From contig CM097885.1 of NCBI GenBank assembly GCA_044892525.1, positions 21,206,001 through 21,270,000 of the forward strand: DNA of 64,000 bases. Reading direction: 5' to 3'. Numbering within the stretch: position 1 is the first letter of the stretch; every line of letters begins with the position of its first letter. The notes beneath the pieces are model-generated. The model worked only from the letters and a program-made list of their open reading frames with translations, was not told the DNA's origin and searched no databases. A program made the translations under genes and the position numbers. The DNA is from Schmidtea polychroa. Taxonomy: Eukaryota. Of the stretch, positions 4,020-4,457 are shown in pieces.

Positions 4020-4457
4020 TTAGAAATCGACCAATGAAATTATCTCATTTCGAACATTGTCAACAAATTCTCTATACTCCAAATTTCTCAACCCCAGCAT
4101 GACAACCTTTCCACTAGCAAACACGTTGACACATATAGGGTTATATTTTAATAGTCTTAGTGCTGGAAACAATTCCGGTTCAAACATACAATCACATTTT
4201 TTCGACATGTTATATAGATTGATATTATGTCCCATATCCATAGTAACGGTAATTGATTGGATTGTAATATTATTTATTCGATATTGTAATTTATTAATAT
4301 CCAAAGGTTTCTTACATCCCATGATTCTGCATTTACCAGTCTTGAAAAATATTATCGGATATTTCCCGCTTCTATCGATAATTTGCTGGGGTTTCCCTGG
4401 TGGGAACGTCATATTCGATACATCAAAATTTCCTCGATAATTTATATTTGCTAACAT
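4020..4457 (-). CDS. TATA-binding protein (TBP)-like protein, minimal core (145 aa)
   Basis: Two TBP repeats: IIFFKTGKCRIMGCK (cf. LIFSSGKMVCTGAK) and FEPELFPALRLLKYNPICVNVFASGKVVMLG (cf. YEPELFPGLIYRM.KPRIVLLIFVSGKVVLTG). Confidence 0.9.
   Translation of the reverse strand: MLANINYRGNFDVSNMTFPPGKPQQIIDRSGKYPIIFFKTGKCRIMGCKKPLDINKLQYRINNITIQSITVTMDMGHNINLYNMSKKCDCMFEPELFPALRLLKYNPICVNVFASGKVVMLGLRNLEYREFVDNVRNEIISLVDF

Follow-up and report, generated by a model that had tools for sequence, protein, structure and literature searches.

The window analyzed in the present study, a 64,000-nt stretch of the Schmidtea polychroa genome, contains a Polinton/Maverick element of the adintovirus-like type, which is composed of approximately 18.5 kb of native sequence and a 5.16-kb retrotransposon insertion, and is bounded by terminal inverted repeats (TIRs) within the size range of 15-25 kb by which Polintons are recognized (Table 1). 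Between the two arms and, as an earlier note on this DNA had described, head-to-head with the gene for the packaging ATPase, from which it is separated by 99 bp, lies a short gene homologous to those for TATA-binding proteins (TBPs), the product of which is hereafter called mini-TBP.

Table 1. Positions of the features of the element in the window
Feature	Positions	Strand	Basis or remark
Polinton/Maverick (adintovirus-like) element, approximate extent	175-23889		homology to the ends of copies L113 and L114
Left terminal inverted repeat arm	538-1039		pairs with 22816-23307; stretches of 163-221 nt, 94-99% complementary
Right terminal inverted repeat arm	22816-23307		pairs with 538-1039
136-aa early-module ORF, possibly an OB-fold ssDNA-binding protein	2760-3170	-	weak Foldseek match
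mini-TBP gene, 145 aa	4020-4457	-	C-terminal TBP repeat complete, N-terminal repeat helix-less
Divergent intergenic region TBP/ATPase	4458-4556		99 bp
TATA box TATATAA (in TGTATATAAAG)	4485-4491	-	about 34 nt upstream of the TBP start codon
TATAAACA late-type motif	4524-4531	+	32 nt upstream of the ATPase ATG
A32-type genome-packaging ATPase, 208 aa	4557-5183	+	Pfam Pox_A32, E 3.6e-7, above cut-off
TATAAACA motif	5169-5176	+	32 nt upstream of ORF 5202-5441
79-aa ORF	5202-5441	+	TATAAACA motif 32 nt upstream
CATAAACA motif	10898-10905	+	65 nt upstream of the integrase ATG
Putative rve-type integrase, chromodomain-like C-terminus	10964-12052	+	Pfam rve E 1.1e-5 (below the curated cut-off), Chromo E 1.3e-3
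GATAAACA motif	11978-11985	+	19 nt upstream of ORF 11998-13053, within the integrase coding sequence
Putative penton/minor capsid protein, 351 aa	11998-13053	+	homologues at the same position in related contigs; no Pfam match above the curated cut-off
TATAAACA motif	12945-12952	+	100 nt upstream of ORF 13046-13414, within coding sequence
122-aa ORF of the conserved late block	13046-13414	+	between the penton-like and capsid-like genes
TATAAACA motif	13369-13376	+	41 nt upstream of the putative major capsid gene
Putative major capsid protein, 407 aa	13411-14634	+	role from size, position, and conservation; no Pfam match
Probable family-B DNA polymerase, main exon	18198-21356	+	identity to related ORFs and NSLYG, GDTDS in the translation; no Pfam polymerase match

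The packaging ATPase shares 36-76% identity with the ATPases of 11 metagenome contigs, and its protein sequence is 100% identical in at least 150 genomic copies. The integrase is 33-59% identical to the integrases of related contigs, and the putative capsid protein is 27-59% identical to ORFs at the same position in seven contigs. Genomic copies that agree at 91-98% elsewhere share only 55-56% identity in the penton-like protein. The polymerase ORF shows 32-51% identity to the large ORFs of six related contigs (L039, L047, L079, L086, L088, and L095), and its translation contains NSLYG and GDTDS, which we take to be motifs of family-B DNA polymerases. None of the scanned ORFs of the element and its relatives matched the Pfam profiles of the RNA-polymerase families, in agreement with the earlier description of an element without a polymerase of this kind. 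In a clade of more distant relatives (see below), the contig L088 encodes a PLA2-like ORF typical of adintoviruses, and a C2H2 zinc-finger ORF is also encoded by this clade.

Homologues of the 136-aa ORF adjoin the TBP gene in six contigs of the near clade (L032, L034, L035, L038, L039, and L047). Its AlphaFold2 model (pLDDT 87.7) found its best Foldseek match, a weak one, in the single-stranded DNA-binding protein (SSB) of phage Enc34 (E 0.03, probability 0.96). The product was considered as a partner of mini-TBP and dropped, the model resembling, if weakly, viral ssDNA-binding proteins.

Identity and predicted structure of mini-TBP

The ORF matched the Pfam TBP profile PF00352 in two stretches (E 2.4e-15; score 56.5 bits, cut-off 22.9), TBP sequences from the PDB matched it with E values down to 9.5e-11, and a comparison with 22 cellular TBPs using hhalign gave a probability of 99 and an E value of 2.6e-18. 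The AlphaFold2 model, which was based on an alignment of 94 relatives (pLDDT 95.8, pTM 0.84), has a two-repeat saddle fold that spans the whole TBP core. TBPs accounted for 43 of the 44 Foldseek matches of this model at E<=1e-3 (TM(query) 0.68-0.79) and for all of the best 38 rows of VIA-align (Z 11.0-13.3), the next unrelated row having a Z score of 6.7; in the latter comparison, residues 66-240 of yeast TBP covered residues 1-145 of the predicted model (145/145) with an rmsd of 2.5 A and a Z score of 13.3. The two TBP repeats noticed earlier in the 145-aa ORF are borne out by these results, and profile searches and structure prediction, which had been proposed as a check on the presence of a TBP fold, both returned that fold.

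The C-terminal repeat has the complete layout S1-H1-S2-S3-S4-S5-H2. In the hhalign alignment, its stirrup, F92-E-P-E-L-F97-P, corresponds to YEPELFPG, which is invariant in cellular TBPs, and the two invariant Phe residues of the latter are matched by F97 and F113, such that this repeat is as well kept as had been claimed. The N-terminal repeat deviates from the layout. In a DSSP assignment on the model, no helix was present from the strand at residues 2-10 to that at residues 25-28, the S2 strand was missing, and H2 was cut to a turn of 3 residues (54-56), at which hhalign placed a gap of 13 residues; the helices described earlier as truncated thus comprise an H1 that is gone and an H2 of which nearly all is gone. 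F38 corresponds to the second Phe of the N-terminal repeat in the hhalign alignment. The position of the first Phe, recorded as absent in the earlier note, is occupied by the conserved Gln of 'KPxQ', an assignment that is less certain because it was read from the alignment by eye, residues 1-31 being unaligned by hhalign. Three of the four intercalating Phe residues (F38, F97, and F113) are kept, and they are invariant in 33 of 33 sequences.

In the alignment, the canonical central Asn, Thr, and Val contacts to DNA are represented in mini-TBP by Ser68, Met46, Leu/Cys121, Arg44, Thr70, and Asn6. The changes relative to cellular TBPs, as read from the hhalign and family alignments, are N to S68, V to T70, V to R44, T to M46, and F to Q25, and the residues replaced include Asn159, Thr124, Thr215, and Val122 (yeast numbering), which make central DNA contacts in canonical TBP. 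Since central DNA-contact residues are replaced, the binding of DNA by mini-TBP is not assured. Across the two clades of relatives described below (33 sequences), F38, R44, M46, E93, P94, E95, F97, N111, F113, and G122 are invariant, N4, N6, S68, and T70 are nearly so, and the stirrup position 96 is L or I in all 33. The TBPs of the distant clade have 167-179 aa and keep longer stretches where mini-TBP of the window has lost its N-terminal helices.

Distribution, selection, and phylogeny

The host genome (781 Mb) contains at least 150 intact copies of the mini-TBP gene, and the 150 genomic matches listed, out of 4161 first-look candidates, were all full length and free of stop codons. When loci were picked by their ATPase gene, the TBP gene was present in 30 of 30 and intact in 24, and stops or frameshifts were found in the other six. 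Such defects are compatible with a recent, decaying capture of a host TBP fragment that has no function for the element, and are also expected of any endogenized copy. The gene is present in sister copies, and its pairwise dN/dS was 0.18 (pS 0.058, pN 0.011, n=27) in a sample of loci chosen without regard to the TBP gene, rather than a value near 1, which the earlier note had associated with a one-off capture; most differences between copies are synonymous, which shows purifying selection. The dN/dS of the ATPase gene, calculated from loci chosen by their TBP gene, was 0.04.

Searches for short relatives of mini-TBP returned 108 sequences at E<=1e-3 and 64 representatives at E<=1e-30, and a relative is encoded in 181 metagenome stretches. 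In 12 metagenome contigs, the TBP gene shares the contig with the ATPase-integrase-capsid block, and these contigs fall into two deep clades, the ATPases of which are 62-76% and 36-39% identical to that of the window copy. The TBP gene is located just upstream of the ATPase gene in most of the 12 contigs, and after the capsid block in L071. The head-to-head arrangement was also found in three further host lineages, the TBPs of which are only 58-59% identical to that of the window. Searches of IMG/VR using the capsid protein and the ATPase alignment as queries found no related Polintons, and the TBP alignment retrieved one distant match from this database (33% identical). The capsid protein of the distant clade had only 27-30% matches in the host genome.

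The host genome encodes its own TBP, the gene of which contains introns, as well as intronless paralogues. A two-repeat TFIIB-family fragment of the host (L154) was of the Brf1 type according to its best PDB match. In a tree with 12 cellular TBPs and four TBP-like ORFs of the host, all of which were placed apart from it, 33 short TBPs and two odd ones formed one clade (SH-aLRT 98, stem length 1.04); two full-length odd TBPs (P0232 and P0244) were outside the short-TBP clade. The phylogenetic comparison with host TBPs that had been suggested earlier separates the short TBPs as one group. A decaying capture is at odds with the monophyly of the short TBPs and their distance from the TBP and TBP-like genes of the host, with the dN/dS among copies, and with the occurrence of the gene, in the same derived architecture, in every lineage examined, and we regard its probability as negligible.

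Rather than an oddity of a single element, the mini-TBP gene is a conserved component of a broad lineage of adintovirus-like Polintons. The earlier note did not count TBP among the standard genes of Polintons; in this lineage, it accompanies the morphogenesis block in the 12 contigs and adjoins the ATPase gene in the three further host lineages. We are highly confident that the ORF at 4020-4457 encodes a real viral TBP that is maintained by selection.

A word upstream of the morphogenesis genes

In the 100-nt windows upstream of 124 ORFs from 13 related contigs, ATAAACA ranked first among 5985 7-mers, being present in 58 of the 124 windows where 5.9 would be expected (p 7e-43). All of these contigs were retrieved through their TBP genes, and the co-occurrence of the word with TBP is one seen only among TBP carriers. 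The reverse complement was found in 4 of the 124 upstream windows, and ATAAACA itself in the first 100 nt of 4 of the 124 ORFs. Y occupied position -1 in 60 of 67 sites, C was never observed at position +7, and ATAAACG was also enriched (10 against 1.2 expected). The word, written here as YATAAAC(A/G) or YATAAACR, is distributed by gene class. All 11 ATPase genes from metagenome relatives have it in the 100 nt before their start, and it precedes the capsid gene in all seven metagenome contigs that hold one, the pX-like gene in 4 of 4, the penton-like and integrase genes in 6 of 10 each, the PolB gene in 1 of 3, and the TBP gene in none of 13. We call the motif-bearing genes late on the basis of their functions.

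In the window, the word stands 19-100 nt upstream of six of six consecutive plus-strand morphogenesis genes, for which the chance probability is approximately 3e-10 (about 0.026 per gene, given how often it occurs in the remainder of the window). By raw count per length, ATAAACA is no more frequent in the element than elsewhere in this AT-rich window (11 outside the retrotransposon, or 13 in the first 23.4 kb, versus 21 in 40.6 kb), and the significance of the word rests on position and strand. Distances to the start codon recur among relatives: -65 before the integrase gene in the host lineages L152 and L153, -98 to -100 before the 122-aa ORF in L047, L068, L071, L151, and L153, and -41 before the capsid gene in L151-L153. 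The commonest distance is 32-38 nt, which, with a TATA-to-start spacing of approximately 30 nt, would leave leaders of only a few bases; therefore, the word could be an initiator rather than a TATA-like element.

Two other roles of the word were rejected. Several copies are located upstream of the stop codon of the preceding gene (13370 versus a stop at 13414; 11979 versus 12052), which does not suit a poly(A) signal, and no constant AG follows the word, as would be expected of a splice acceptor. Several copies are within coding sequence, and protein constraint may help to keep them; in particular, GATAAACA at 11978 overlaps conserved codons of the chromodomain, to which coding constraint may contribute.

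The TBP gene itself is preceded by TATATAA or TATAAAT, 40-57 nt upstream, in L034, L068, L071, L099, and L105, and also in L032 when its proper start is used. Canonical TATA boxes before this and other early genes, together with three of the four intercalating Phe residues and the TFIIB stirrup, are consistent with mini-TBP being a general substitute for TBP, which would bind ordinary TATA boxes on the element and perhaps in the host, and provide TFIID-independent, repressor-proof initiation for all viral genes. The contacts of TBP with TFIIA, NC2, Mot1, and TAF1 sit on helices, and those carrying them are missing here, which would suit such a substitute. YATAAACA would then be an initiator or be read by another viral protein, for which the C2H2 zinc-finger protein of the distant clade is a candidate, or by a host Forkhead-type factor, as ATAAACA fits the Forkhead core consensus RYAAAYA. 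However, other Forkhead-type variants were not enriched upstream of the genes (GTAAACA 1 against 1.2 expected, ATAAATA 4 against 4.0), which weakens Forkhead sites as an explanation of the word, and canonical TATA words were only weakly enriched (TATAAAA 7 against 3.6, TATAAAT 6 against 3.2). Moreover, the DNA-facing residues are systematically changed and yet kept in the family (R44 and M46 invariant, S68 and T70 nearly so, Q25 conserved), which points to an altered rather than a retained specificity. A general substitute appears unlikely to us. Other proteins of the element to which no function was assigned could also read the motif.

Proposed role of mini-TBP

We propose that mini-TBP is expressed early and, as a viral TBP, drives a late-promoter code private to the element, a mechanism to which, taken as a whole, we give slightly less than an even chance. 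The elements, having no RNA polymerase of their own, would be transcribed in the nucleus, and the TBP gene would belong to an early module along with SSB-like, Bcl-2-like, RING, and PolB genes, and be read from an ordinary TATA box in the window element and in some relatives. Mini-TBP may bind DNA by a remodeled saddle, in which the C-terminal half is canonical, with both Phe residues and the EPELF stirrup, and the N-terminal half is altered by the replacements of Phe by Gln, Val by Arg, Thr by Met, and Val by Asn and by the loss of helices. It could then nucleate initiation by Pol II via its conserved TFIIB-type stirrup. Its likeliest targets would be the late promoters of the element itself, namely, YATAAAC(A/G) before the packaging ATPase, integrase, penton-like, and capsid genes, and it would prefer this word over TATAAAAA. 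Having lost its N-lobe helices, it would escape control by TFIIA, NC2, Mot1, and TAF1.

TBP is oriented on its site such that the 5' half of the site faces the C-terminal repeat and the 3' half faces the N-terminal repeat. With this orientation, the canonical 5' TATA half of the motif would meet the canonical C-terminal repeat and the deviant 3' AACA the remodeled N-terminal repeat, which fits the late-promoter mechanism. In a more specific and more tentative form of the proposal, the helix-less N-lobe would read the deviant 3' half of YATAAACR, switch host Pol II to the packaging and capsid genes, and escape TFIID, NC2, and Mot1, and the system would be a simpler, independent counterpart of the herpesvirus vTBP/TATT system that is shared by two deep clades. 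We infer DNA binding, the recruitment of TFIIB, early and late timing, and the link of the protein to the motif from the comparisons described above, and this last link is a correlation between sequences. The earlier suggestion that a private TBP may redirect host Pol II to late promoters is supported, circumstantially, by the YATAAACA motif, which marks late genes across the lineage and is not placed before the TBP gene, while its central step, the reading of that motif by the protein, is so far correlative.

The E-P-E-L stirrup of the C-terminal repeat of TBP contacts TFIIB. The conservation of EPE(L/I)F in 33 of 33 sequences, when the full surfaces for complexes with TFIID and TFIIA are gone, may also indicate a decoy or shut-off factor that traps TFIIB (or Brf/TFIIB-like factors) or blocks host TATA boxes, and thereby dampens host or early viral transcription. 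A pure TFIIB trap, however, needs no invariant remodeled DNA-facing surface with three Phe residues, and an activator would better explain both the late-gene motif and the constant position of the gene in front of the late block; we regard a decoy as improbable.

The position of the TBP gene next to the packaging ATPase gene in most related contigs may be taken to suggest a function outside transcription, in which a TBP-fold architectural protein bends DNA, for example the termini, in packaging, protein-primed replication, or integration. Rows of VIA-align with Z scores of 5.7-6.4 included rolling-circle replication initiators and a DNA glycosylase, which have TBP-like folds and are not transcription factors. 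However, mini-TBP is a true homologue of TBP by sequence and keeps the TFIIB stirrup, for which we know of no role outside transcription, and the TIRs are made of other sub-repeats and show no concentration of ATAAACA. We consider a DNA-bending role of this type very improbable.

Many eukaryotic dsDNA viruses are considered to descend from Polintons (Mavericks, adintoviruses), and we know of essentially no account of how the genes of these elements are controlled. A selected, element-encoded TBP together with a promoter word confined to morphogenesis genes provides a concrete hypothesis of an early-to-late switch, which lends itself to testing with a single small protein and a DNA site of 8 bp. 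If correct, mini-TBP would represent a natural minimal TBP, the helix-less lobe of which shows what a universal factor can do without. For annotation, YATAAACR and the short-TBP profile are also useful markers of this lineage in genomic and metagenomic sequences.

Comparison with known systems

The homology of mini-TBP to cellular TBP extends, by both sequence and fold, across the entire core of 180 residues, and mini-TBP shares with cellular TBP a complete C-terminal repeat with the EPELFP stirrup and both Phe residues, as well as the second Phe of the N-terminal repeat. In contrast to cellular TBP, it has 145 aa instead of about 180, no N-terminal H1, a one-turn remnant of H2, and Gln in place of the first Phe, and it is carried by a mobile element, not by the host. 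It resembles the TBPs of giant viruses (Nucleocytoviricota) in being a virus-encoded PF00352 protein, and the neighboring clusters of mini-TBP in the ESM Atlas, of about 193-199 aa, are mostly viral; however, the TBPs of Nucleocytoviricota are full length. Giant viruses bring their own RNA polymerase.

For maps of midsize eukaryotic linear dsDNA (MELD) viruses, polinton-like viruses with an adintovirus-like PolB, Starrett et al. (2021, PMC8502044) use in the legend of Fig. 5 the label 'TBP' for a gene 'similar to TATA binding proteins'. This legend, in a section on non-animal datasets, describes no truncated architecture, conservation, selection, or motif, and the likeness to mini-TBP is one of the legend label alone, from which membership in the short-TBP family is not visible. 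A literature search on TBP in polintons and adintoviruses, which covered article text, found no description of a Polinton TBP beyond this legend, and a search for ATAAACA together with polinton, Maverick, adintovirus, or late promoter found no description of the motif. The 'TBP' label of the 2021 adintovirus paper was already known, and the YATAAACA motif is new here.

The closest functional parallel may be found in the beta- and gammaherpesviruses, which were overlooked when the earlier note assigned viral TBPs to giant viruses with their own polymerase. As described in the herpesvirus literature, these viruses encode TBP-like late factors (KSHV ORF24, EBV BcRF1, and HCMV UL87) that act at TATT late promoters; these factors are large, resemble TBP by predicted fold only, act as part of a viral pre-initiation complex of six proteins, and make direct contact with Pol II (PMC7498053, PMC4893493, PMC8360532). 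The two systems have in common a TBP-type protein without an RNA polymerase of the virus itself and a non-canonical, TATA-like word at structural genes, the function of which in Polintons would be analogous. Mini-TBP differs from the herpesvirus factors in being small and recognizable by sequence and in keeping the TFIIB stirrup, and its putative target is YATAAACR, not TATT.

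Identity and anatomy of the mini-TBP

Regarding the 145-aa ORF named the mini-TBP, which an earlier note had read as a TBP from the sequence alone, the profile and structure searches proposed there recovered the TBP fold, and the ORF is almost certainly a real, selected viral TBP. The Pfam TBP repeat (PF00352) matched with E 2.4e-15 (56.5 bits, cut-off 22.9), and solved TBPs matched in sequence with E down to 9.5e-11, chiefly via residues 55-133. With the AlphaFold2 model (94 relatives as input; pLDDT 95.8, pTM 0.84), 43 of 44 Foldseek hits at E<=1e-3 were TBPs, and the best 38 VIA-align rows were all TBPs (Z 11.0-13.3; first unrelated row, Z 6.7); yeast TBP 66-240 covered 145/145 residues of this predicted model at 2.5 A.

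The C-terminal repeat (residues ~61-145) possesses the full strand-helix-strands-helix layout with the stirrup F92-E-P-E-L-F97-P and F113, and is well kept, as had been described. When the mini-TBP profile was compared with that of 22 cellular TBPs, residues 32-142 were aligned (probability 99, E 2.6e-18) with a 13-residue gap at the expected helix H2 of the N-terminal repeat, and DSSP on the model assigned no helix H1, an ordered loop at 11-24 and a one-turn H2 remnant at 54-56, in agreement with the shortened repeat and truncated helices of the original description. Residues were mapped to canonical TBP, and to the roles of its residues, by the profile-profile alignment and by the structural match, in which residue 1 pairs with 66. 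F38, F97 and F113 stand for three intercalating Phe out of the four, N4 and S68 for the first and second central Asn, M46 and L121 for the two central Thr, and R44, T70 and N6 for three of the four DNA-facing Val. By this alignment reading, the first Phe position of the N-terminal repeat is occupied by the conserved Gln of 'KPxQ'; one intercalating Phe of this repeat had been reported missing. Across 33 short TBPs (relatives of the mini-TBP) of both clades described below, F38, R44, M46, E93, P94, E95, F97, N111, F113 and G122 were invariant, and N4, N6, S68 and T70 nearly so. The first description was therefore accurate on all checkable points. In the distant clade (proteins of 167-179 aa), more of the sequence is retained at the places of H1 and H2, so that the N-lobe looks to have shrunk progressively.

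Organization of the element

The TIR-bounded element and the head-to-head arrangement with the packaging ATPase were also recovered: two TIR arms are present, and 99 bp separate the mini-TBP gene from the A32-type ATPase gene. Similarity to other genomic copies spans ~175 to ~23889. The ATPase is followed on the plus strand by overlapping ORFs for a 79-aa protein, an rve/chromo-type integrase, a 351-aa penton-like protein, a 122-aa protein and a 407-aa capsid-like protein; small ORFs left of the mini-TBP gene, the weak Bcl-2-like one and a 136-aa one among them, form the early side, and the right side has a RING-finger ORF and the gene for a family-B polymerase. No RNA-polymerase family matched among the scanned ORFs of the window and of a distant-clade contig.

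Features of the element, of a related contig and of the host genome (G000)
Feature	Position	Strand	Remark
Mini-TBP ORF, 145 aa	4020-4457	minus	Pfam TBP match
Antisense ORFs	4057-4440; 4099-4440		no comparable TBP-type support
TIR arms	538-1039; 22816-23307		inverted repeat pair
Long TIRs	~175-1039; 22816-23889		short sub-repeats with TCAAGGTCA and ATGACTCAT
Weak Bcl-2-like ORF	1656-1967		E 0.01, under cut-off
ORF, 136 aa	2760-3170	minus	next to mini-TBP gene; conserved in near clade
Ty3/gypsy-type LTR retrotransposon	5508-10668		zinc-knuckle gag; protease-RT-integrase ORFs, minus strand
Integrase ORF	10964-12052		core run of ~23 isoleucine codons
Penton-like ORF	11998-13053
Inverted arrays of short tandem repeats	15090-15321; 21573-21981		79-89% complementary; flank polymerase region
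RING-finger ORF	22435-22761		zf-C3HC4_3, E 5.7e-10
PLA2-like (E 6.7e-11) and C2H2 zinc-finger ORFs, distant-clade contig L088	L088:3994-4398 and L088:6198-6629		between ATPase and integrase genes
Intronless host TBP paralogues	L146, C2:182.6 Mb; L148, C2:132.3 Mb; L150, C1:195.8 Mb		outside short-TBP clade
Host TFIIB-repeat ORF clusters (two)	C3:38.2-39.1 Mb; C1:23.8-24.2 Mb

Several further features were observed. The retrotransposon splits the late run, with the 79-aa ORF on one side and the integrase gene on the other, and is absent from the clean genomic copy L112, where 5507 is directly joined to 10669. The isoleucine run in the integrase looks like a trait of the lineage and not like a lesion of this copy: the L112 integrase aligns over nearly the same length, and that of L151, from another host lineage, is ~25 residues shorter. 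The confident model of the 136-aa protein (pLDDT 87.7) bears a weak likeness to viral ssDNA-binding proteins with an OB fold (phage Enc34 SSB at E 0.03, with T7 gp2.5 and ASFV CP312R further down the match list), and this product is possibly the replication SSB of these protein-primed elements. In the TIR sub-repeats, TCAAGGTCA and ATGACTCAT correspond to a monomer site for nuclear receptors and to an AP-1 site, and at each end of the element the sub-repeats may make up an enhancer-like array. The Bcl-2-like and RING-finger ORFs lie at opposite ends, and Bcl2 and IAP homologues are described from adintoviruses in the consulted parts of Starrett et al. (2021; PMC8502044).

Distribution, selection and descent

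At least 150 mini-TBP matches were listed in the 781-Mb host genome from 4161 first-look candidates, and all 150 were full length, 97-100% identical and devoid of stops. To avoid choice by the TBP gene, 30 loci were picked by the ATPase gene; the TBP gene was present in 30/30 and intact in 24. Among the 27 gap-free copies from these loci, pairwise pS was 0.058, pN 0.011 and dN/dS 0.18 (ATPase in TBP-picked loci, 0.04), which indicates that most of the divergence arose under purifying selection, while the elements functioned. The outcome that had been named as speaking against a viral TBP, namely, absence from sister copies with dN/dS near 1, was thus not what these loci gave. A one-off capture is contradicted by the 30/30 loci, this dN/dS and the wide range of relatives.

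Three other host lineages carry TBPs 58-59% identical to the mini-TBP in the same head-to-head position. One of them, L152, shares 59% identity with the window in the TBP but 94-97% in ATPase and capsid, and the TBP and early module are, as read from these identities, mosaic like the penton-like ORF. The latter shows no more than 50-56% identity from one genomic copy to another (L112, L151-L153), its neighbours in several copies being 91-98% identical; a divergent penton cassette appears to have entered, by exchange, elements that are otherwise alike, which would be expected of a host-contact protein.

The protein collection held 108 short relatives, mostly 144-170 aa and 37-96% identical (64 representatives at E<=1e-30), and 181 metagenome stretches code for one. 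In 12 of the longer contigs, the TBP gene shares the contig with relatives of the window's ATPase, integrase, capsid or polymerase genes; these contigs split into a near clade (62-76% identity in the ATPase) and a distant one (36-39% in the ATPase, 32-34% in PolB). A quick-search maximum-likelihood tree (162 columns; 33 short, 12 cellular and four host TBP-like sequences) placed all 33 short TBPs and two odd relatives in one clade (SH-aLRT 98, stem length 1.04) apart from the cellular and host sequences. The host's best TBP match is an intron-containing gene (L145) 59% identical to a cellular TBP. In addition, several TBP paralogues without introns, each with both repeats in full (Pfam E 1e-38 to 1e-47), occur in the host, as does a multi-copy, TFIIB-like family of at least 13 intronless 301-310-aa ORFs (TFIIB repeat, E 1e-6 to 1e-8).

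Promoter words of early and late genes

In the window, (T/C)ATAAACA was read upstream of each plus-strand late ORF, and it precedes the ATPase in 11/11 metagenome relatives possessing one. In an unbiased count over the 100 nt upstream of 124 non-nested ORFs from 13 metagenome contigs, which are not all independent (L032 is close to L034, and L079, L086 and L101 to each other), ATAAACA ranked first of 5985 7-mers (58/124 windows against 5.9 expected, p 7e-43). As controls, its reverse complement occurred in 4/124 upstream windows and the word itself in the first 100 nt of 4/124 ORFs. It preceded the ATPase (11/11), the capsid (7/7), the small ORF before the capsid (4/4), penton-like and integrase genes (6/10 each), PolB (1/3), SSB-like genes (2/4) and unlabelled ORFs (21/61), and never the TBP gene (0/13). 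Y was found at -1 in 60/67 sites and C never at +7, the flanks being otherwise unconserved; the spacing to the ATG is most often 32-38 nt, other groups fall near 55-100, and in the three other host lineages the spacings recur almost unchanged (ATPase at -36, capsid at -41, integrase at -65 or -71). Among the Forkhead-type words tested, ATAAACG was the sole enriched variant (10 vs 1.2 expected; GTAAACA 1 vs 1.2, ATAAATA 4 vs 4.0, ACAAACA 2 vs 1.5), and canonical TATA words were barely enriched; on these counts, YATAAACR is stricter than a Forkhead site. Some sites sit in conserved coding sequence, and by raw density ATAAACA is no more frequent in the element than in the rest of this AT-rich window. 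TBP-less relatives were not found in IMG/VR with capsid and ATPase queries.

The TBP gene itself has a canonical TATATAA ~34 nt upstream of its start in the window and TATA(A/T)A(A/T) at 40-57 nt in L032, L034, L068, L071, L099 and L105, and other early ORFs of the window are preceded by CCAAT-like GATTGGTTGATAG and TATAAAT.

Proposed mechanism

A two-stage programme fits these facts. Early-module genes, the TBP gene among them, would be read by host TFIID and Pol II from ordinary promoters; mini-TBP would then accumulate, bind YATAAACR and bring TFIIB and Pol II to the genes for morphogenesis. That the mini-TBP drives late promoters through this word is plausible, if slightly short of probable, and its roles as a general TBP, a decoy or an architectural protein are each less probable than this. 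Given how TBP lies on DNA, the C-terminal repeat, itself canonical, would meet the canonical TATA half at the 5' end, and the remodelled N-terminal repeat the deviant AACA half. H1 and H2 are surfaces for TFIIA, NC2, Mot1 and TAF1 binding, and through their loss the mini-TBP would be constitutively active. Because, with the word in the role of a TATA box, the short distance to the ATG would leave very short leaders, YATAAACR may be an initiator instead of a TATA-like element.

The observation of a Polinton mini-TBP is therefore confirmed and its interpretation partly supported: a private TBP in a polymerase-less virus agrees with the real TBP, the lack of an RNA-polymerase match and the late-gene word, but the gene is not peculiar to one element and a 'TBP' label was already known.

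Comparison with known systems

The TBPs of giant viruses work for those viruses' own polymerases. The literature search for a Polinton TBP, which covered text, yielded only the label 'TBP' in the legend of Fig. 5 of Starrett et al. (2021; PMC8502044; preprint 10.1101/697771), among viruses with adintovirus-like PolB, and a search for the ATAAACA motif in a Polinton context found no mention. The finding is of good interest because Polinton gene regulation thereby becomes a small, testable protein-DNA problem.

The mini-TBP is homologous to cellular TBP but has asymmetric repeats and three of the four Phe, so that we call it a divergent TBP-family member. As a system, its closest likeness is the late-gene switch of beta- and gamma-herpesviruses, which also combines a viral TBP-like protein with a non-canonical late word. 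According to the consulted parts of these reports, herpesvirus ORF24, BcRF1 or UL87 are TBP-like and read TATT promoters, and are large proteins acting in a six-protein complex with direct Pol II contact (PMC7498053, PMC4893493, PMC8360532).
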